64,000 nucleotides of DNA, taken from Escherichia coli (lineage in GTDB: Bacteria > Pseudomonadota > Gammaproteobacteria > Enterobacterales > Enterobacteriaceae). Under the pieces are notes generated by a model. The model was not told the DNA's origin, did not search any database, and saw only the letters and a list, made by a program, of their open reading frames with translations. Both the position numbers and the translations under genes were made by a program. Shown here in pieces: positions 18,808 to 29,491 of the stretch. The stretch's first letter is position 1. Each line of letters opens with the position of its first letter. Location of the stretch: the NCBI RefSeq assembly GCF_024502345.1, contig NZ_JALDNN010000001.1, one strand, 5' to 3'.

Positions 18808-19398
18808 ATGGCAAAGAAAAAGACGTTTAGTTTTGCTCACCTCATTGGTCTTGGCCCTTCCGCTTCTGAGGAAGAAGAGGATAAAAAAGCCAAAAAAGCG
18901 AAAGCCCGTCGCGCGGAAGAGGACGAGCGCGAAGATGATGCCGATGATGATGAGCGCGACGACGACGCGGAAGAAGACGAACGCGACGATGATGCTGAAG
19001 ATGACGGCGATGATCCGGATGCGTCAGAAGATGATGATTCTGAAGACGACGGCGACGACGATCGCAAAGAGAGTAAGGCGGTAAAAAATGCACGCGCTGC
19101 TGAGCGTAAACGCTGCGCCCGTATTTTCGGCAGTAAGCATGCAGCTGCGAATCCTTCACTGGCCGCGTCACTGGCTTTCAATACCGGGATGAGTTCTGCG
19201 GCAGCAATTAATGTCCTAGCCTCTTCGGCTCCGGCCGCAGCCGCATCTCAGCCATCCCGTAAACGCTCTCTCGATCAGCGTATGCAGGAAAGCCACCAGG
19301 TCCGGCTTAATCCGGATAGCGGACAGAAAGAGACCGGAAAGTCTGCGCTGGTAAGTAAAATGACCGGCCTCTACAACTCCACAAGAGGAGAGAAATAA
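18808..19398 (+). CDS. putative scaffolding protein with long acidic low-complexity tract
   Basis: 196 aa; SD aggagc; ~70-residue run of D/E (DDADDDERDDDAEEDERDDDAEDDGDD...). Confidence 0.6.
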   Translation: MAKKKTFSFAHLIGLGPSASEEEEDKKAKKAKARRAEEDEREDDADDDERDDDAEEDERDDDAEDDGDDPDASEDDDSEDDGDDDRKESKAVKNARAAERKRCARIFGSKHAAANPSLAASLAFNTGMSSAAAINVLASSAPAAAASQPSRKRSLDQRMQESHQVRLNPDSGQKETGKSALVSKMTGLYNSTRGEK

Positions 19399-19899: not shown

Positions 19900-20949
19900 A
19901 TGGAAAATATTTTTGATACCAGCGTGCTGGTGCAGGTTGTTCCTAACCTGAAAACCAGTCAGAACTGGCTGCTCGATCGCTTCTTCCCGAATGTCGTGAC
20001 TTACGAGACTGAAGAAGTGGCGATTGATGTTGATGTCGGCCTGCGTCGTATGGCGCCGTTCGTCTCCCCGCTGGTGGAAGGTAAGCTGGTCGAATCCCGT
20101 AAATACCAGACCAATACCTTCAAACCGGCATACATCAAAGATAAGCGCGCGCCGGACCTGCGCAAACCTATCCGCCGCCAGATTGGTGAGCGTATTGGCG
20201 GGGAATATACCGCTGCCGAGCGCGAAATGCTGAACCTTCAGTTTGAAATGACTGACCAGATTGACATGATCAACCGTCGTCTGGAATGGATGGCGGCGAG
20301 TGCGCTGGTGTCTGGGACCGTAACCGTCGCCGGGGAGGGCTATGAAACTAAGGTGGTGGATTTCGGGCGTGCTTCGGATCTGACCATCACTCTTAGCGGC
20401 TCGGATAAATGGCCACTGACCGTTGCAGCTGGCGCTACCAATACCCAGCCATCAGATGACATTGAAATCTGGCAGACTACTTTCCTGAAAGAGTCCGGCT
20501 CTGTCGCCACGGATCTGGTCTTTACGAATAAGTCATGGCGTGCATTCCGACTGGATACCACCATCAAGGATAACGCCATTACATTCCCGGCGCTGAGCCC
20601 GTTTGGTAACCAGATTAACGCCGGCCCACAGGTAATGAAGGGCGCAATTTATAAAGGGCGCTGGGGTAACTTTGACCTCTGGTTATATAACGACTGGTTT
20701 ATTGACCCGCTGGACAACGTCGAGAAGCCTATGATCCCCGATGGCGCTGTCATTATGAGTGGTGCCGATCTGATGGGTACCCGCGCCTTTGGCGTTATCC
20801 TGGACCCGGCTTTCAACTACGGTCCGCTGGCTTATGCGCCAAAATCCTGGGTGAAAGAAGATCCAGCCCAGCGTCTTATCCTGATGCAATCCTCCCCGCT
20901 GGTAATTCCGAGCCGGGTAAATGCATCCCTCTGCGCAACGGTGGTCTGA
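19900..20949 (+). CDS. major capsid protein (lambda gpE-like)
   Basis: 349 aa from MENIFDTSVLVQVVPNL; gene order. Confidence 0.8.
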   Translation: MENIFDTSVLVQVVPNLKTSQNWLLDRFFPNVVTYETEEVAIDVDVGLRRMAPFVSPLVEGKLVESRKYQTNTFKPAYIKDKRAPDLRKPIRRQIGERIGGEYTAAEREMLNLQFEMTDQIDMINRRLEWMAASALVSGTVTVAGEGYETKVVDFGRASDLTITLSGSDKWPLTVAAGATNTQPSDDIEIWQTTFLKESGSVATDLVFTNKSWRAFRLDTTIKDNAITFPALSPFGNQINAGPQVMKGAIYKGRWGNFDLWLYNDWFIDPLDNVEKPMIPDGAVIMSGADLMGTRAFGVILDPAFNYGPLAYAPKSWVKEDPAQRLILMQSSPLVIPSRVNASLCATVV

Positions 20950-20950
20950 T

Positions 20951-21331
20951 ATGGCAAAACAACCTAATACCGGGCTGGCTGATGATCTGAATGCAGAAGG
21001 ATCTGCCAAAGACGGCCTGAGCGTTGACAACCTGAATGCTGGCGATAACACCCAGGAAAAACAGCCTTTGAGCAAAACAGATGATGCCGAATTGTCTGTT
21101 GATGACGATGGTGGTGACGAAAAATCCGGAGACACTGAATCGCAGGAGTATGTGGTGTTGAAAGGGAATTGCATTCGTCATGACGGGGAGATGTACCGCG
21201 AAAATATGCGCATCCCTGTAACCGGCAAAGATGCTGAGCGTCTTCTGCAGTCCGGCGTTATTGCTGATGTTGATGTGCTTCGTAAGCGAGTTCTTGCTTC
21301 TCAGCCATCAGTTTCAGTTACGACAGGGTAA
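20951..21331 (+). CDS. hypothetical head-module protein
   Basis: 126 aa, acidic N-terminal half. Confidence 0.5.
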   Translation: MAKQPNTGLADDLNAEGSAKDGLSVDNLNAGDNTQEKQPLSKTDDAELSVDDDGGDEKSGDTESQEYVVLKGNCIRHDGEMYRENMRIPVTGKDAERLLQSGVIADVDVLRKRVLASQPSVSVTTG

Positions 21332-21335
21332 TGAC

Positions 21336-21695
21336 ATGGGCGTGGACTGGGATTCTCATCTTCTGAGTCCGCTGCATGATGTCTTTGGCGATGAGCACGA
21401 GTACCGTCCACGTAACGGTACTCCTTTTACAATTAACGGGATTTTTGACCGTGGTTATGCGCAGGTTGCTGAAAACCTTGATGGCGATTCAGAAATTAAC
21501 ACCTCCAGCCCGATGTTGGGTGTGCGCGATGCTGAATTTCGCAAGCTGGGTAAATCGCAACCTGCTGTATCTGACCGGGTATTTATAAAGACGGTCGGTG
21601 GTCACATCATCAATCAGTTATTTGTTGTGTCAAACGTCGAACCCGACAGTCATGGCGGATCTCGTCTTGTCCTCAATGTGGTAAAACCGCGATGA
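21336..21695 (+). CDS. putative head completion/head-tail connector protein
   Basis: 119 aa, position after capsid. Confidence 0.45.
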   Translation: MGVDWDSHLLSPLHDVFGDEHEYRPRNGTPFTINGIFDRGYAQVAENLDGDSEINTSSPMLGVRDAEFRKLGKSQPAVSDRVFIKTVGGHIINQLFVVSNVEPDSHGGSRLVLNVVKPR

Positions 21696-22237
21696 ATTCA
21701 GCAGCGATACGGCAAATGGTTGTCACTGCACTAACCGGGACAACCAGCGCGGGCGACCGCGTATTCTCTCCACGCGACTGGTCAACTTCACCAGATATGT
21801 ATCCTGTGTTGTTGGTTCAGACGCCTTTTGAACAGAAAAAATCACAGGGGCGTAATACCCCTGCTTTTACCACCCTCACCACTGTCAGGATCACTGGGCG
21901 CGTTCAGGAGTATGACGGCGATACAGTGGATGATGGAGCCATGCGGGCAGAGCTGGCGCTTGAAAGCCTTCGCGAGCAGGTGGAGCGCGCGGTGATCAAC
22001 AGCTACGAACTGACGCGGAATATTCAGAAATACGCGGAAGTTCGTTCAACCATCAATGTTGATTCAGAAGGAGAGGCCCATATGGGGCAGCTTCTTTTCG
22101 AGATCGATATAGAGCATTACCAGGGGCCGGAAGATTTTTATCCTGTCCAGTCGGTTCCCCTTGAGGGCATGGATATTGCGGTCGACATGCCAGACGGCAC
22201 AGTTAAACCGGGTATCAGCCTCAATCTTCAGGAGTAA
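21692..22237 (+). CDS. putative tail completion/terminator protein (Mu-like)
   Basis: 181 aa, directly upstream of sheath. Confidence 0.5.
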   Translation: MNSAAIRQMVVTALTGTTSAGDRVFSPRDWSTSPDMYPVLLVQTPFEQKKSQGRNTPAFTTLTTVRITGRVQEYDGDTVDDGAMRAELALESLREQVERAVINSYELTRNIQKYAEVRSTINVDSEGEAHMGQLLFEIDIEHYQGPEDFYPVQSVPLEGMDIAVDMPDGTVKPGISLNLQE

Positions 22238-22240
22238 TCC

Positions 22241-22438
22241 ATGTTTGTTAAGCCGAACAACGGGCTCAGCGTTCGCTGCCCCGTCAAGGGCATCCCATTG
22301 CCTAAAGAGGGTGCTGAAGTACCTGACAATATTTTCTGGCGTCGCCGTCTGAGCGATGGGGACGTGATCCTCTCTAAAAAGGATGAGGGCGCGCCAGAGA
22401 AACAATCATTACCTAAAAAAGCGGGAGAAAATGAATGA
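22241..22438 (+). CDS. small hypothetical tail-module protein
   Basis: 65 aa, overlaps sheath start. Confidence 0.45.
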   Translation: MFVKPNNGLSVRCPVKGIPLPKEGAEVPDNIFWRRRLSDGDVILSKKDEGAPEKQSLPKKAGENE

Positions 22439-23937
22439 CCGTACCTTTCGCTCGTGTTCCCGATAACCTGCGGGTAGGGCTTTTCTTCGTTGAGTTTGAT
22501 AACTCAATGGCGAATAACGCCACTGCCACGCAGCGCACCCTGCTTATCGGTGGGATGCTCAGTACCGGCTCAACCCTCCCTGGTATTCCGCAGCGAGTTT
22601 CCTCTTCGGATACCGTCGGTGAGCTGACAGGAAAAGGGGGAATTCTGCAGGCCATGATGGCGGCGTATCAGAAAAATGATACCGCAGCCGAAGTCTGGAT
22701 CCTGCCGCTGGAGGAAGACTCCGATTCCATGGTGGCTGCAACCGGCACCATTAGAGTGAGCAGCGCACCGACGGAAACCGGAGTGATCTCCCTTTATATT
22801 GCTGGTGAGCGCATTCAGTTGACCGTTGTAGCAACAGATACGGTGGCAGCGATCGCCACCTCTCTGGCCGCGGCGATTAACGCAAAAACCACGCTACCTG
22901 TAACCGCCAGTGCGACTACGGATACCGTAACCCTGACCGCGAAGAATCTTGGTGCTACGGGTAATGGGATCGACATTCGCCTGAACTTCCTCGGCTTACC
23001 TGGAGGCGAGTCCACACCTGCAGGCCTGGAACTGACGATTACTGCTATGTCTAACGGAGTCGGGGCTCCGGATATTACCGGCGAGCTGGCAAACCTGCAG
23101 GATCGGACATTCGATTTCATCATCAACCCTTACGACGATACAACCTCGTTGAATGTGATGAAGGAGTTCCTGTCAGACACTGGCGGTCGCTGGGCATGGG
23201 ACAAGCAGCTTTATGGCCATTCCTTTGGTACAACCACCGGGACTTACGCCCAGCTCGGTACCAAAGGTGAGCTGCGCAATAACCAGCATGAGACCCTGCT
23301 GGGCGTAAATAAATCGCCGTCCCCTTCCTGGGCATGGTCTGCAGCTTACACCGGCGCAGCTGCGGTGAGTCTGCGTAATGACCCCGGCCGCCCGCTACAG
23401 TCGCTCGCTGTTCAGGGGGTGCTTGCGCCAGAACTGCAGGATCGCTTTGAGCTGACCGAGCGTAACAATCTGCTGTACAGCGGCATTTCGACATTTACGG
23501 TCGATGACGATGGCACGGTGCGCATTGAAAACCTGATCACCACCTACCAGAAAAACAGCTATGGCGATGCAGATGACAGTTATCTGGAAGTGGAGACGCT
23601 GTTCAGCCTGATGTTTGTGACCCGCTACCTGCGCACAGCGGTGACCAGCAAGTTTGGCCGTATGAAGCTTGCTGCGGATGGAACCCGATTTGCACCTGGC
23701 GCGGCGATCGTCACGCCAAACATTATCAAGGCCGATCAGATTGCCGAGTACCAGACTCTGGTATGGAACGGTTATGCGCAGGATGCGGAGGCATTCGCAA
23801 AAAATATCATCGTCGAGCAGAACGCCAAAAATCCGAACCGCGTCGATGTGCTGTGGCCGGGAACCCTCATGAACCAGTTGCGCATTTTCGCGCTGCTCAA
23901 TCAGTTCCGCACTCGGGCTGAATCAACAGGAGCTTAA
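22435..23937 (+). CDS. contractile tail sheath protein (Mu gpL-like)
   Basis: 500 aa, followed by tube gene. Confidence 0.8.
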   Translation: MTVPFARVPDNLRVGLFFVEFDNSMANNATATQRTLLIGGMLSTGSTLPGIPQRVSSSDTVGELTGKGGILQAMMAAYQKNDTAAEVWILPLEEDSDSMVAATGTIRVSSAPTETGVISLYIAGERIQLTVVATDTVAAIATSLAAAINAKTTLPVTASATTDTVTLTAKNLGATGNGIDIRLNFLGLPGGESTPAGLELTITAMSNGVGAPDITGELANLQDRTFDFIINPYDDTTSLNVMKEFLSDTGGRWAWDKQLYGHSFGTTTGTYAQLGTKGELRNNQHETLLGVNKSPSPSWAWSAAYTGAAAVSLRNDPGRPLQSLAVQGVLAPELQDRFELTERNNLLYSGISTFTVDDDGTVRIENLITTYQKNSYGDADDSYLEVETLFSLMFVTRYLRTAVTSKFGRMKLAADGTRFAPGAAIVTPNIIKADQIAEYQTLVWNGYAQDAEAFAKNIIVEQNAKNPNRVDVLWPGTLMNQLRIFALLNQFRTRAESTGA

Positions 23938-23940
23938 ACG

Positions 23941-24312
23941 ATGGCAGGTGATACTACTAACCGCCTGGCGGGAACCGCCTATGTCACTGTTAACGGTGTG
24001 ACGGTAATGGTGGAGGGCTCGTTTAAATACCAGGCTGCCACCGTAAACCGTACCACCCTGACAGGGATGGATGGTGTGCACGGATATAAGGAAAAACCTG
24101 TGGCGCCATACATTTCTGCCCGACTGCGTGACAGTGGCGGAACGAATGTGCAGGGCTTTAACCAGCAGACGAACGTCAACGTGATCGCCGAGCTGGCTAA
24201 CGGGAAAACTATCATTGGCCGTTCACTCTGGACGGTCAACGTCCAGGAAGTGGAAAGCGAAGATGCAGTATTTGATGTTCGCTGGGAAGGCCGCGACGTA
24301 ACGGAGAACTAA
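23941..24312 (+). CDS. tail tube protein (Mu gpM-like)
   Basis: 123 aa, position. Confidence 0.75.
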   Translation: MAGDTTNRLAGTAYVTVNGVTVMVEGSFKYQAATVNRTTLTGMDGVHGYKEKPVAPYISARLRDSGGTNVQGFNQQTNVNVIAELANGKTIIGRSLWTVNVQEVESEDAVFDVRWEGRDVTEN

Positions 24313-24313
24313 G

Positions 24314-24592
24314 ATGGCTGAGATTGAACGCGTTAAAACCATTCCATTAACCGTAGCGCTGGATGATGCTGCGGAGAAGACCACTTATACGCAGCTGGAG
24401 CTGAAAGCACCCACGCTAAGCCAGGCTGAGCAGTTTTACGAGAAACAGGCTGCGTCAACGTCGCTCGCGGCGATGCGCCTGCTTATTGCGCTGGTTTCCG
24501 GTACGCGTGAAAGCGTACTGCAGCCGATGGATTTTCTCGACTTCCGTAAGTGTGAGGAGTATCTGCTCAGTTTTTTGACCTGGAAGCCCTGA
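24314..24592 (+). CDS. tail assembly chaperone (short form)
   Basis: 92 aa, immediately upstream of tape measure; contains slippery heptamer near 3' end. Confidence 0.7.
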   Translation: MAEIERVKTIPLTVALDDAAEKTTYTQLELKAPTLSQAEQFYEKQAASTSLAAMRLLIALVSGTRESVLQPMDFLDFRKCEEYLLSFLTWKP

Positions 24593-24741
24593 CAACCTGG
24601 CAGGAAATGGCCGCTGACGTCACCTTCTATTTCCGCTGGTCTGAGGACAGGGCGTGGGGAATGACCCGCGCCCGGCTGAAATGGTGGGTGGCGCAGGCAT
24701 CCCGGATAAACAAGCTTAGGAAACCTGAAGACGATGAGTAA
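24314..24741 (+). CDS. tail assembly chaperone, -1 frameshifted long form
   Basis: Zero-frame ORF to 24577 joined to -1 frame extension ..TWQEMAADVTFYFRWSEDRAWGMTRARLKWWVAQASRINKLRKPEDDE. Confidence 0.55.
24571..24577 (+). promoter_or_regulatory. Programmed -1 ribosomal frameshift slippery site T TTT TTG
   Basis: ttttttg with TTT TTG in the zero frame; the -1 frame stays open to 24741, overlapping the tape-measure start. Confidence 0.65.
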
Positions 24742-26662
24742 TTCTTTTGATTTTGAGCTGGTGGCCAGCGACCAGGTTAGCGAGGCTATAGACCGCATTA
24801 ATGAGGCTGTCCGTGACCTGGAGCCGAAGCTAGATAAAACTAAAGAAGGGCTCAAGTTAGGCGGTCAGGAAACAGCCGACGGACTGAGCGGTTTTATTTC
24901 TCGCCTCGAGAATATGTCGAAGAGCGCGCGGGATAACGTGCAGTTTATTGGCGACATGGTTCCCCCACTGAAAATGGTGGGGGAGCTCACGGGGAAGATG
25001 GGGGCGCTGGGGTTAGCCGGTGCTGCCGGCTACGGACTGAAACAGGTCGCTTATGGATTTCGGGAGGCATCCCGTCAGGCCTATAATCTTGATGTCTCGG
25101 CAAAAAATGCGGGAATGCGCGTTGACGATTTTACCCGACTTTCCGGGGCAATGCGTATTCTTGGGGCAGACAGCGAGAGCGCTAATGCATCAATAGAAGG
25201 TATTTTCAAAGCATTCAATGAGGCTGCCAGTGGTAAAAACGAGGGGGTTATGGCAGCGATGGCGCAAATTGGTGCTCAAATCCAAAAAAACAGCGATGGT
25301 TCAGTAAATACCCTTAAAACACTGGAGTCTATCGCAAAAATTTTTCCAACCTTGCGACCTGAACAGCAGAAGTCCGCCGCTGATGCACTTGGGCTGACGC
25401 CCGAATTGCTGGCGCTAATGCGTGACGGTGAGCGCATGAAAAAGCTGCTGGCGAAATCGGATGAATTTGGTCTGACTGTGGATCCGGCACTAAATCAGCA
25501 ATTGAGTGAAGTGAACGGCACTATGAATGAGCTCAGCGCATCCTGGGATGGTCTGTGGCAACGTTCAAAAAACAAGGCACTTAAGACCATTCTTTCGGAT
25601 GGTTCAGTCAAAGACGGCCTTGAAGGTGTTACCGATCTGTTCACTAATGGTGATTTTACTGGGCTGTCTCATGCTCTCGGTTTTATCAACAGCAATGATG
25701 CTGAGAAACTACGGCGCATTCAGAACGATAAGGAACTTTATAACAGCTTACCCCGCAGTGAACGTGGGCAGGTTGACGCGGGTTTCATGACTGATGCTGT
25801 AAGAAAGCGGTACGATGCGAATTACCGCGCGACCGATTCTGCGATTCAATTGCAGAATGACTTATCCGCTATCAGCCAGCCACAATCCAACGTTGCACGC
25901 GGCAATGTTCCTTACGGGGAAACAAGGAATAACGCAATTGGCTTCAGAAATAATAATCCCGGTAATTTGAGGGCTGCAGCAAACGCAACGGGTAAAAATG
26001 GCGGATTTTCTACCTTTGCGAATGATGCCGACGGAAGAGCTGCAATGGCGAGACAGCTGATGTTGTATGGTGACAGGGGGAATAATACTCTGGATGGGAT
26101 TATTCATACCTATGCTCCGCAATCAGAGAATAATACTCGTGCATATATTGATTCCGTATCAAAAAGTACTGGGTTTGGAGCGCAGCAGCGTATTAATCTC
26201 CACGATCCTGATGTGTTAAAAACACTGATGGCAGCAATGATTAAACATGAAAGCGGAGCACAGCCGTATACCGAAAATGAACTGAGCGATTCTGTCCGGA
26301 CGGCCATCATTGACGATCGGTGGAAGGGTTTACGTAGCCCGGAAGTTCTGGCTCAACAGCGATATGATATTATCTCAGGTTCGCAAACTGGAAATCGTGA
26401 CTCCAGCACTCTTAGTAACCCGAGTGATGAAACTGATATTCTCTCAGGCTCGCAGAACAGAAATCGGGAATCCATCATTCTGAGTGATACGGGTAAGAAA
26501 AGTGATGAAAGTGTACTCGGCGACAATCTGGCTAAGTCTCTTAAAGAGGCAATGTCAGAACAACCACTTAAGCTCGAAATCACAATGGTTAATGATAAGG
26601 GTGAGCGAAAAACCTATAATGCGGAAAATAATGGCAGAATAACAACGGCCATGAATTACTGA
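24734..26662 (+). CDS. tail tape measure protein
   Basis: 642 aa, helical-rich, position after chaperone pair; C-terminal imperfect tandem repeat (ISGSQTGNRDSS / LSGSQNRNRESI). Confidence 0.8.
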   Translation: MSNSFDFELVASDQVSEAIDRINEAVRDLEPKLDKTKEGLKLGGQETADGLSGFISRLENMSKSARDNVQFIGDMVPPLKMVGELTGKMGALGLAGAAGYGLKQVAYGFREASRQAYNLDVSAKNAGMRVDDFTRLSGAMRILGADSESANASIEGIFKAFNEAASGKNEGVMAAMAQIGAQIQKNSDGSVNTLKTLESIAKIFPTLRPEQQKSAADALGLTPELLALMRDGERMKKLLAKSDEFGLTVDPALNQQLSEVNGTMNELSASWDGLWQRSKNKALKTILSDGSVKDGLEGVTDLFTNGDFTGLSHALGFINSNDAEKLRRIQNDKELYNSLPRSERGQVDAGFMTDAVRKRYDANYRATDSAIQLQNDLSAISQPQSNVARGNVPYGETRNNAIGFRNNNPGNLRAAANATGKNGGFSTFANDADGRAAMARQLMLYGDRGNNTLDGIIHTYAPQSENNTRAYIDSVSKSTGFGAQQRINLHDPDVLKTLMAAMIKHESGAQPYTENELSDSVRTAIIDDRWKGLRSPEVLAQQRYDIISGSQTGNRDSSTLSNPSDETDILSGSQNRNRESIILSDTGKKSDESVLGDNLAKSLKEAMSEQPLKLEITMVNDKGERKTYNAENNGRITTAMNY

Positions 26663-26693
26663 TCACTGTCGTCATTTCGTTAAGGAAGAAGTT

Positions 26694-26942
26694 ATGAATG
26701 AAAAAGTTTTTGGAGCAAAAGCCATTTAGACTCCAAAGGTTTTTGCGCTTGTTTACCTGGTAATTGGCATTTTCCTCGTTTTTTCTGTTGTCTCAATGAA
26801 TTTCACGGCGATTACGATATCGGTGGTAAGTGCATTGCTTTTACGTGTGCTTTATGAGTTCCTAATGAACTCATTCAAGGCGACTGAGCATCTTTACAGG
26901 ATCGCCGAATCTCTTGACCGTAATGGATCCAGCGATAAATAG
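26694..26942 (+). pseudogene. small membrane protein ORF interrupted by an in-frame amber (TAG) codon at 26727-26729
   Basis: SD aaggaag then ATG; 11 codons, TAG, then the same frame stays open for 70 codons encoding a hydrophobic helix (VFALVYLVIGIFLVFSVVS...); internal ATG at 26796 has no SD. Confidence 0.5.
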
Positions 26943-26965
26943 ATAAGTCATTTCAGTGCATATGT

Positions 26966-26993
26966 AAACCGCCGACATGGCGGTTTTTTTATT
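26966..26993 (+). terminator. rho-independent terminator
   Basis: aaccgccgacatggcggtt followed by ttttttt. Confidence 0.8.
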
Positions 26994-27002
26994 TCCGGAG
27001 GC

Positions 27003-28409
27003 GTGATGCCGTCAATTATCCAGGACGCAATAACTTCTCTTTTGGGGGGAGATACCAGCGATGACTGGCAGGGGCAGTTACGGCCCAGCTCATTCAGAGG
27101 TGTGCCATTTGCAATTGTTGCTGAGGAAGGGAGCCACGGCCGACGCCAGGCGGTACATGAATATCCCTACCGTGATACAGCCTGGATAGAGGATATCGGG
27201 CGGGCAACACGGCGATTTGTTATTCGCGGTTTCTTGATCCAGAACAGCCAGGTTTACGGCGGCGGCGATGCTATCACGCAGCGCCAGTCACTGATTGAAG
27301 CCTGTGAACAAAAAGGTAGCGGTACGCTTGTCCATCCGACACTGGGCGAATTAACGGTTTCCATCCCTGAGAATGGTTTGCGTATTTCCGGTTCGATGGA
27401 GAACGGGCGAGTATTTGAATTTACCCTGATGGCAATTGAATCAGGGCTTAAAGTGTTTGCTGTCACGGGCAGTACCGTTGCAGGCGCCACGGTGAAAACC
27501 AACTATCTGAAACTGGTCAGCACTGCTGTGCTGAGCACGATTGCCAGAGTTAAGAGTGAAATCCGCGGTGTCACACAGGCTATAAACACCATCAGAGGCA
27601 CGGTCACGTTCTGGACTAACATGGTTGACAGCACCATCAGTCAGGTCACGAATCTCAGCAATGTCCTGAACTCCACGTTCGGGAATACCCGGTACGGACG
27701 TTACAGTAAAGGCTCTGTGGGCGGTAGTTCCTCTGCTGTTGCTGGCAAATCGTCAGTTGCTGATGTGGATGATGAGAGAGCACTGGCTGACAAGGTAACA
27801 GCCCAGTCGGTAATGGACCGGAAAAATGTTACCGACAGGTCGAGCCAGCTTAGCAGCTCCAACACACCTGATGAGTTTGTCCAGGGCGTCGCCGACGTGG
27901 TAAACGCAATTCTTAACAGCGCCGGCAGCGTTAATGACCGAATCACAGCGCTGGAAAAACTGGCTAATTCAATCAGCACGGAGTACCAGCAGTCCGACAG
28001 CAGCAAAGCGATTTCGGCGACCATGAACACGCTGATTGTTGTGCTATGTACTGGTGCCATGACCAGTGCCGCTGCGGACTCCAGACCAGCCAGTACAGAC
28101 GAGGCAGAAGAGTTAACTCAACGAGTTTCTGTGCAACTTGATACGGCGCTGGTTCTGGCTGGAGACCGCGCGGACGATGATATGTATAACGCGCTTCTCG
28201 CCGTCAGATCGGCATTCCTTTCTACGATGAGTGAGCGTGCTTCTGGTCTGAGCGAGCTTCTGCAGGTTACTACCGCTCAGCCGCTTCCGGCGCTGACGCT
28301 GGCAAACCGATTATACCAGGATGCCACCCGTGCAGATGAACTGGTACAGGAAGCGCGCGTACCGCATCCGGCGTTTATGCCGACAACCATGAAGGTACTG
28401 AGGCAATGA
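27003..28409 (+). CDS. Mu gpN-like DNA circulation protein
   Basis: 468 aa; N-terminal ..SSFRGVPFAIV.. region; gene order. Confidence 0.7.
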   Translation: MMPSIIQDAITSLLGGDTSDDWQGQLRPSSFRGVPFAIVAEEGSHGRRQAVHEYPYRDTAWIEDIGRATRRFVIRGFLIQNSQVYGGGDAITQRQSLIEACEQKGSGTLVHPTLGELTVSIPENGLRISGSMENGRVFEFTLMAIESGLKVFAVTGSTVAGATVKTNYLKLVSTAVLSTIARVKSEIRGVTQAINTIRGTVTFWTNMVDSTISQVTNLSNVLNSTFGNTRYGRYSKGSVGGSSSAVAGKSSVADVDDERALADKVTAQSVMDRKNVTDRSSQLSSSNTPDEFVQGVADVVNAILNSAGSVNDRITALEKLANSISTEYQQSDSSKAISATMNTLIVVLCTGAMTSAAADSRPASTDEAEELTQRVSVQLDTALVLAGDRADDDMYNALLAVRSAFLSTMSERASGLSELLQVTTAQPLPALTLANRLYQDATRADELVQEARVPHPAFMPTTMKVLRQ

Positions 28410-29491
28410 ATGCAGACAGCGATCTGGATGTTGTTTCTTTGACGGTCGACGGCAAAATCATCGAGGGGTGGGATTCTGTCCGGGTAACGCGGGGTATTGA
28501 GCGTTTTCCCTCTGATTTCGATCTTGGGCTAATGGATTACTTCCCTGGCAACGAAGATCGTCAACTCGTTGAAGAGGGAATGTCTTGTGAAGTTCGTATC
28601 GGAGATGATCTGACACTGACGGGATATGTTGATGACTGGGAACCCGCACTATCGCGCTCCCGCCATGAGGTCCGCGCCACGGGCAGGAGCAGATGTCAGG
28701 ACCTGGTGGATTGCTCAGCCGAGTGGCCTAACAACGTCATCAATGCCAGTAATGCGCTTGAAATTGCTTCTCGCCTGGCATCCTACTACGGCATCACCGT
28801 AACCACGGATGTTGATGAACTTGTGAAGGTACCCCAGTTCACTCTGAACTGGGGTGAGTCTCCGCAAGAAGTCATCGATCGGGTGGCCAGATGGTCTGCT
28901 CTGCTTTACTACGATCAGCCCGATGGAAACCTGTTACTGACCCGGGTGGGAACACGTCGTGCGGCAAGTGGGATAGCCGAAGGGGTAAATGTCGAGCAGG
29001 CATACTACCGCAAATCGATGGCTGACAGGTTTTCAGATTATGTCGGTGTATCAATGAGCGTTTCTCCAATTGCAGGGTATTCGCCTGATACGGCCTATGA
29101 CGCTGTGACTCTGGCAACGGCGAGAGATCCGGAGGCCGCCCGCATGCGGTACCGAAAACATATATCGATTGTGGAAAGTACCCTGATGGCTACTCAACAG
29201 GCACAAAGTGCGATCGACTGGGAAATGAACCGGCGGTACGGACGTTCAAAACAGCTCTCGGTAACCATCGATTCCTGGCGGGATAAAGACGGGAAACTGT
29301 GGGAACCAAACACATTGATCCCCGTTGATCTTCCCACCTTACGGTTGCCGAAGACTGAATTGCTACTGGCAGAAGTCACCTATATGCGCGATGACTACGG
29401 CACCCATGCACGCATGACGCTGATGCCGCCTGAAGCATTCTCCGTTCAGCCATATGCCTTCTACCAGAACCTGGCGGGATTCAATACATGA
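28406..29491 (+). CDS. Mu gpP-like tail/baseplate protein
   Basis: 361 aa; gene order. Confidence 0.7.
   Translation: MNADSDLDVVSLTVDGKIIEGWDSVRVTRGIERFPSDFDLGLMDYFPGNEDRQLVEEGMSCEVRIGDDLTLTGYVDDWEPALSRSRHEVRATGRSRCQDLVDCSAEWPNNVINASNALEIASRLASYYGITVTTDVDELVKVPQFTLNWGESPQEVIDRVARWSALLYYDQPDGNLLLTRVGTRRAASGIAEGVNVEQAYYRKSMADRFSDYVGVSMSVSPIAGYSPDTAYDAVTLATARDPEAARMRYRKHISIVESTLMATQQAQSAIDWEMNRRYGRSKQLSVTIDSWRDKDGKLWEPNTLIPVDLPTLRLPKTELLLAEVTYMRDDYGTHARMTLMPPEAFSVQPYAFYQNLAGFNT

Follow-up and report, generated by a model that had tools for sequence, protein, structure and literature searches.

A lysozyme-like domain of the Enc34 type in the tape measure protein of an Escherichia coli prophage

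We analysed a 64-kb stretch of Escherichia coli DNA (hereafter, the window) and examined one open reading frame (ORF) in it, a 642-residue "hypothetical protein" of RefSeq (WP_001568796.1), together with the imperfect tandem repeat near its 3' end. The ORF encodes the tape measure protein (TMP) of an E. coli prophage with a Mu-type contractile tail, and the C-terminal part of the protein holds a domain homologous to the catalytic domain found in the endolysin of Hafnia phage Enc34. We put at about 75% the probability that the domain is a virion-associated lysin, which would cut peptidoglycan locally when the phage enters the cell, and not an endolysin of host lysis. The ORF, the domain and its putative active-site residues are placed as follows.

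24734..26662, plus strand: TMP ORF, 642 residues
25901..26380, plus strand: Enc34-type (PHA02564) lysozyme-like glycoside-hydrolase domain, residues 390-549
25949..25966, plus strand: NNNPGN motif, residues 406-411; N408, P409 and N411 are invariant in 45 diverse homologues
26111..26113, plus strand: Tyr460 (in HTYAP), an aromatic residue aligned with Enc34 Trp79
26144..26146, plus strand: Tyr471 (in RAYID), aligned with Enc34 Tyr95 and invariant in the homologues
26249..26251, plus strand: Glu506 (in KHESG), aligned with the catalytic Glu131 of Enc34 and invariant in the homologues

An enzyme-like domain and its alleles

Neither Pfam nor NCBIfam has a model for residues 390-549 of the TMP. 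The initial annotation had left the domain unassigned and proposed a domain search, and although these two collections were empty, PHROGs and the PDB yielded endolysin and transglycosylase families rather than merely generic tape-measure matches. Residues 393-530 matched phrog_873 ("endolysin", E=2e-39), phrog_992 (head protein) and phrog_7182 (tail injection transglycosylase). The phmmer search against the PDB returned 9vvp_L, a 1,295-residue protein named "Gp29" that carries the domain at its N-terminus (E=5.4e-20), and 7q47_A, the Enc34 catalytic domain (E=7.3e-7). The predicted fold of the TMP domain is likewise homologous to that of the Enc34 domain; it consists of helices only, resembles the alpha-lobe of lysozyme and is of glycosidase type.

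Cells of E. coli, P. aeruginosa and H. alvei with a permeabilised outer membrane are lysed by the Enc34 domain (NCBI family PHA02564). On superposition, its Glu131 coincides with the catalytic Glu of GH73 and GH23 enzymes, Trp79 and Tyr95 are close by, and all three residues line the active-site groove (PMC8943055). We examined conservation in two alignments, of 45 homologues (29-78% identical to the window protein) and of 34, with identities down to ~23-30%. The invariant columns include N408, P409, N411, G434, A461, P462, N466, Y471, G480 and E506, the pattern to be expected of an active enzyme. The SLT/GH23 family of Pfam, PF01464, had no match in the window protein, and the relationship of the domain to SLT enzymes is at most a distant one at the level of fold, as proposed for Enc34. 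No peptidase family of Pfam or NCBIfam matched either, as a zinc metallopeptidase of the T5 pb2 type might have done.

The architecture of the protein was modelled with AlphaFold2, once for the whole protein (with the 34-sequence alignment) and once for residues 380-642 (with the 45-sequence alignment). In addition to the domain, the models delimit two parts.

24734..25876, plus strand: N-terminal ruler part, residues 1-381, predicted almost wholly alpha-helical
26507..26659, plus strand: conserved C-terminal tail, residues 592-642, ending ...NGRITTAMNY

In the whole-protein model, near-continuous helices run from residue 14 to 381, with a predicted local distance difference test score (pLDDT) of 86-92 for residues 120-250 and low confidence for residues 1-110. 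Residues 390-549 form a separate compact domain in both models, at pLDDT 83-95 in the whole protein and a confident 88-98 in the prediction for residues ~380-642 that had been suggested at the outset. Residues 550-592 are predicted to be disordered (linker pLDDT <50 in the model of residues 380-642), and a helix (residues 592-608) and a beta-hairpin (residues 615-629) follow. As modelled, the TMP would thus be modular, with a helical ruler of ~380 residues, the Enc34-type domain, a disordered Ser/Asp/Asn-rich tether at residues 550-591, and a tail of ~50 residues. The last ~50 residues (...LKLEITMVNDKGERKTYNAENNGRITTAMNY) are conserved and can be recognised, though diverged, even in the SLT alleles described below; they are presumably an anchor that docks in the baseplate hub. 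A transmembrane segment was also considered, in the Gly/Ala-rich and weakly hydrophobic stretch at residues ~76-108, and is not claimed because the best 19-residue Kyte-Doolittle mean is only 0.85 (residues 81-99).

These models refine what had been read from the sequence by eye. The C-terminal third had been described as leaving the helical character of the protein for a Gly/Asn-rich block that resembled a separate globular domain. A separate globular unit does start near residue 390, but it is itself all-helical, and it does not make up the whole C-terminal third, since the linker and the conserved tail come after it. The Gly/Asn-rich peptide is present as quoted, but covers only the first ~40 residues of the domain, the N-terminal loop that holds the NNPGN motif. 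The suggestion that the domain is "possibly cell-wall acting" gains support from the sequence and fold homology to Enc34, from the conserved catalytic residues and from the SLT domain found at the same place in near-identical prophages. On these grounds, this separate globular domain is very probably cell-wall acting.

That the ORF is a TMP, as the initial annotation held, is settled by its match to phrog_2276 ("tail length tape measure protein", E=2.9e-152, residues 1-562), by synteny with Mup42 of Serratia phage vB_SspM_BZS1, by a -1 frameshifting chaperone gene upstream and by the predicted helical N-terminus. Two further PHROG tape-measure families, phrog_8125 and phrog_12506, matched as well. 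Scans of the TMP with Pfam and NCBIfam gave sub-threshold noise only (PF10145, WXG100 and PrpD). PF10145 scored 13.6 bits against a threshold of 33.2, and is precomputed as present on homologues 92-93% identical to the TMP. While megablast of the gene against the phage collection found no match, tblastn did find homologues, including a full-length one in phage BZS1 that is 38.5% identical and named tape measure protein, Mup42. The genes around the TMP follow the order of Mup38-Mup48 in that phage: the TMP stands at the Mup42 position, after the sheath, tube and tail-assembly-chaperone genes and before those of DNA_circ_N, the hub, gp45 and gp46.

24314..24741, plus strand: tail assembly chaperone gene (24314-24592, 92 residues; sequence read directly) with its -1 extension

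Within the chaperone gene, positions 24571-24577 form a canonical -1 slippery heptamer (T_TTT_TTG), from which the -1 frame remains open as far as 24741, overlapping the start of the TMP; RefSeq does not annotate the frameshift product. PF10109 (Phage_TAC_7) is found on the chaperone gene of identical length in relatives. A frameshifting chaperone pair of the G/GT type normally sits 5' of tape measure genes.

A megablast search of 5,426 complete genomes with the TMP gene found matches in 32, all E. coli, and in four of these the identity is 100%. Strain ECONIH4 has the gene in a prophage adjoining tRNA-Pro/yejM. The head module of this prophage is lambda-like (terminase, gpW, portal, S49 protease, decoration protein and major capsid protein), and its tail module is of the Mu-type contractile kind, encoding DUF2635, sheath, tube, tail assembly protein, the TMP ORF, DNA circularization protein, hub, and gp45-, gp46- and gp47-like proteins.

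The homologues of the TMP number 729. In many of the close ones, residues 1 to ~380 are 85-99% identical to the window protein and are followed by Pfam SLT (PF01464, sometimes with PF13406). The clearest case is a prophage of Enterobacter roggenkampii (L004), which blastn found to be 97.6% identical to the window over 20734-25861, unrelated over 25862-26965 and 98.4% identical from 26966 on. Its tail module otherwise has the same layout, and the SLT domain occupies the same position in the TMP.

25861..25862: left breakpoint of the swapped cassette, TMP codon ~376, from blastn against L004 and protein alignment
26966..26996, plus strand: intrinsic-terminator-like hairpin (26966-26986) and T run, the first base being the right breakpoint

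According to these alignments, the Enc34-type and lytic-transglycosylase cassettes are alleles at one site, within a swapped cassette of 1.1 kb. Of the indirect evidence that the Enc34-type domain serves peptidoglycan cleavage, we consider the SLT allele at this site the strongest. As a natural experiment in prophages otherwise 97-98% identical, the swap indicates that both enzymes are interchangeable for entry, and it supplies ready-made chimera junctions for engineering phages or tailocin-like particles. A different rearrangement at nearly the same place was seen in one homologue of 666 residues (P0096), in which TMP residues 1-383 (99% identical) run straight into baseplate hub protein (PF05954/PF22255/PF21929); in window terms, 24734-~25880 is joined to ~28640-29491. 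This looks like a deletion in a decaying prophage; lost with it would be the lysin domain and tail of the TMP, the DNA circularization gene and the N-terminus of the hub.

A proposed role in entry

We propose the following sequence of events. The TMP would occupy the lumen of the tube and have its C-terminal end at the baseplate hub, and upon sheath contraction and opening of the hub, that end would leave first. The tethered Enc34-type domain would then be released to the periplasm, where it would cleave the glycan strands of peptidoglycan locally. The opening would let the tube or a TMP channel reach the inner membrane and DNA pass.

Several points weigh against this proposal. We infer the enzymatic activity of the window protein, its orientation in the tail and the timing of release; the activity of Enc34-type domains borne on TMPs is likewise deduced from their homology, and the orientation in a Mu-type tail is carried over from T5 and from general knowledge. 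Even for Enc34, N-acetylglucosaminidase specificity was only inferred by its authors, from structural neighbours (PMC8943055). Trp79 of Enc34 is replaced by Tyr460 in the window protein, though the position is still aromatic. Finally, three or more copies of a folded domain of 17 kDa must fit, or be unfolded, in the lumen of the tube or hub.

Some of the same points would fit a domain that is an inert structural module, either a plug of the tube or hub or a peptidoglycan-binding anchor, with a lysozyme-like fold and no cleavage. Cleavage by the domain is deduced rather than measured, Tyr stands in place of Trp79, and the C-terminal parts of the TMP contact the hub plug in T5 (PMC10038345). We consider such a module unlikely. 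No change of the catalytic Glu, the Tyr or the NNPGN and AP motifs is seen in the 45 sequences, which is unexpected for a purely structural role, and the alternative allele is an SLT domain with an E-S catalytic motif of its own, suggesting that selection has acted on enzymatic function and not on shape.

The tandem repeat and the downstream cargo slot

Beyond the domain, the initial annotation had noticed an imperfect tandem repeat, visible also in the DNA. Its two units of 23 residues lie in the Ser-rich linker (residues 550-591).

26366..26434, plus strand: repeat unit 1, residues 545-567, DIISGSQTGNRDSSTLSNPSDET
26435..26503, plus strand: repeat unit 2, residues 568-590, DILSGSQNRNRESIILSDTGKKS

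The repeat search placed the units at 26365-26433 and 26434-26502 (69 nt, 72% identity), which in frame corresponds to 26366-26434 and 26435-26503. The two are identical at 50 of 69 nucleotides and 11 of 23 residues, the top period-69 score in the whole window. When the codons of the gene were shuffled 500 times, the maximum averaged 28.8 +/- 1.9 and never exceeded 35. Tandem Repeats Finder, run at a minimum score of 30 over 24000-28000, found nothing because there are just two copies at 72% identity. The next-best period-69 self-similarity of the window (41 of 69 bases identical) lies at ~18916-19080, which by its offset to locus L001 falls in a hypothetical gene between the S49 protease and head decoration genes; it may be due to chance or to a weak repeat within a scaffold-like protein.

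Comparison with relatives bears the repeat out as a genuine duplication, for its copy number ranges from one to three. Close relatives (at least 80% identity) are 619, 642 or 665-671 residues long, corresponding to one, two and three units of 23 residues. The third unit is lineage-specific, one homologue (P0004) having doubled the first unit and another (P0001) the second, from which it follows that expansions arose more than once, independently. In homologues of lower similarity, from Salmonella, Edwardsiella and Klebsiella, there is just one unit and it is poorly conserved, and one homologue (P0089) has an insertion of ~120 residues at the repeat site. The repeat segment is 24% Ser and predicted to be disordered, and 12 of the 16 codons that differ between the units are nonsynonymous. 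We take the linker to be a hypervariable tether that joins the enzyme to the conserved last ~50 residues. The repeat, we propose, is a spacer of polymorphic length that arose through recurrent slippage or unequal recombination, and neither a folded nor a catalytic element.

Alternatively, the repeat might be a functional length adjuster under selection, tuning the length of the tail or the reach of the enzyme, as opposed to neutral slippage. Copy number does vary between 1, 2 and 3 among TMPs otherwise 91-97% identical, TMP length generally sets tail length (XM1 discussion), and the large insertion of P0089 falls in the same linker. We nevertheless find this improbable: the segment is distal to the globular domain, outside the helical ruler and predicted to be disordered (pLDDT<50), the sheath and tube genes are equal in length across 1-unit, 2-unit and SLT-type loci, and the preponderance of nonsynonymous differences between the units suggests little sequence constraint.

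The swapped cassette also includes a small gene downstream of the TMP.

26694..26942, plus strand: small membrane-protein gene, DUF4282/phrog_12129-like, in the swapped cassette

It is preceded by a good Shine-Dalgarno sequence (aaggaag, 26682-26688) and has an ATG at 26694, but its codon 12 (26727-26729) is an in-frame TAG; an ORF of 48 residues opens further on, with an internal ATG at 26796. The surrounding 340-nt gap, 26663-27002, has no RefSeq annotation and holds a full-length homologue of an 81-residue DUF4282/phrog_12129 protein. Identity over the gap is 99.7-100% in 21 E. coli genomes as well as in locus L005, where the TMP is only 89% identical, and the gap is better conserved than the adjoining 3' end of the TMP gene (84-94% identical). 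Rfam gave nothing near gathering scores over 26600-27050.

Across loci, variable cargo (moron) genes occupy the slot that separates TMP and DNA_circ_N. A phrog_22446 protein of 165 or 162 residues is encoded there in L003/L004 (5946-6443) and L007 (4455-4943), and a 188-residue protein plus an 81-residue DUF4282 protein in Edwardsiella locus L006 (4458-5333); the slot is empty in Serratia phage BZS1. The idea that the cargo gene co-varies with enzyme type was rejected because L007 pairs an Enc34-type TMP with phrog_22446, which also stands beside the SLT allele.

A small membrane protein beside a TMP gene may recall T4 Imm, a protein that excludes superinfection by binding the TMP (bioRxiv 10.64898/2026.03.06.709160). 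By this analogy, the cassette at 25862-26965 could join the ejected C-terminal end of the TMP and the downstream membrane protein into a functional pair, in which the protein expressed from the prophage would block incoming phages via their TMP, as in the superinfection exclusion of T4 Imm-gp29, and the linker would evolve under conflict. We hold this to be a long shot, given the TAG within the downstream gene and a cargo type that is not strictly tied to enzyme type, as L007 illustrates.

Spread of the domain and comparison with known systems

The size of the domain family was estimated by an exhaustive HMMER scan of cluster representatives with the domain as query, which found 8,592 representatives at E<=1e-3 and 2,366 at E<=1e-10. 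The best 150 matches are mostly proteins of 470-660 residues in which the domain ends 40-75 residues before the C-terminus, and all five sampled proteins of this type matched PHROG tape-measure families at their N-terminus. TMPs thus seem to be the commonest host of the Enc34-type domain. Other carriers are "head" (ejection) proteins of the epsilon15 type, T7-like internal virion proteins, stand-alone small proteins, a fusion of hub and tail lysozyme, and a crAss cargo protein in which it is present twice. Nearly all of these contexts are proteins that leave the virion during infection.

This distribution bears on whether the domain could serve host lysis at the end of the cycle. Although the only experimentally characterised member, Enc34 ORF39, is an endolysin (PMC8943055) and phrog_873 is labelled as such, a role of this kind is very improbable, for the domain forms part of a structural protein of the virion and has neither a signal sequence nor a transmembrane export segment, the family is repeatedly fused to ejected virion proteins, and the ECONIH4 prophage encodes a separate lysozyme and lysis-protein cassette, so that the TMP domain is not needed as an endolysin.

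Lysin-bearing TMPs are already known from T5, TM4 and phiIPLA35, and the Enc34-type fold has been known since 2022. Podophage records already name the domain "internal virion protein with endolysin domain" or "putative lytic transglycosylase". What the curated resources that we searched do not contain is a Pfam or NCBIfam model, the TMPs as the apparent commonest host, and the near-isogenic swap of Enc34-type for SLT-type. The searchable literature, which is incomplete, yielded no paper linking the Enc34-type domain to TMPs, and genome papers mention both separately. Our finding does not overturn current views. It points to an annotation gap, as the TMP is "hypothetical" in RefSeq/PGAP while the family has thousands of cluster representatives; a profile of the domain would bring annotation to a large class of lysins carried in the virions of phages that infect Gram-negative hosts, and the copies borne on TMPs form an extra pool of Enc34-type enzymes that may act on Gram-negative peptidoglycan.

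Among the known systems, Enc34 ORF39 (PDB 7Q47; PHA02564) is a free endolysin of 26 kDa, encoded in a lysis cassette and provided with a C-terminal membrane anchor of two helices. The window domain, by contrast, is internal to a TMP of 642 residues and followed by a disordered linker and a hub-type tail, with Tyr in place of Trp79.

The working model for the role of the domain is T5 pb2, which would resemble the window protein in being a TMP with a peptidoglycan-degrading module near its C-terminus. The muralytic C-terminal part of pb2 (pb2C) lies at the tail tip, in contact with the hub plug; according to the proposal, it is the first to be expelled to the periplasm, where it digests peptidoglycan, and the rest of pb2 follows and forms a channel (PMC10038345). 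T5 is a siphophage, and its module, at the very C-terminus, has a metallopeptidase motif and is cleaved from the TMP during assembly, whereas the window tail is contractile and its module has a glycoside-hydrolase-type fold, with a conserved tail of 50 residues after it. The TMPs of T5 and TM4 have been shown to contain domains that cleave peptidoglycan, with which the reading of our domain as a virion-associated lysin agrees (review PMC6116005). Muralytic motifs within the TMPs of mycobacteriophage TM4 and S. aureus phage phiIPLA35 aid entry (PMC1796659; PMC6116005), but these are siphophages of Gram-positive or mycobacterial envelopes and their enzymes belong to other families.

Internal virion proteins of the T7 gp16 type (9VVP Gp29; Kayfunavirus and related phages) are ejected and carry the Enc34-type domain. 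We found no relevant paper on 9VVP, and infer that Gp29 belongs to this type from its length, its N-terminal domain, the four chains per entry and a BFVD match to "Internal virion protein D". Unlike the TMP, these are podophage capsid-core proteins of ~1,300 residues with the domain at the N-terminus, and not tail rulers. T7 gp16 itself carries an SLT-type motif (review PMC6116005), which implies that the same two enzyme types alternate among internal virion proteins too.

Closest to the window protein are the TMPs of the SLT type (P0092 in Enterobacter roggenkampii, L003/L004). They share its first ~376 residues at 85-99% identity, the same tail module and gene position, and a similar C-terminal tail; they differ in carrying a PF01464/PF13406 lytic transglycosylase, followed downstream by the phrog_22446 gene of 165 residues where the window has the DUF4282-like gene.

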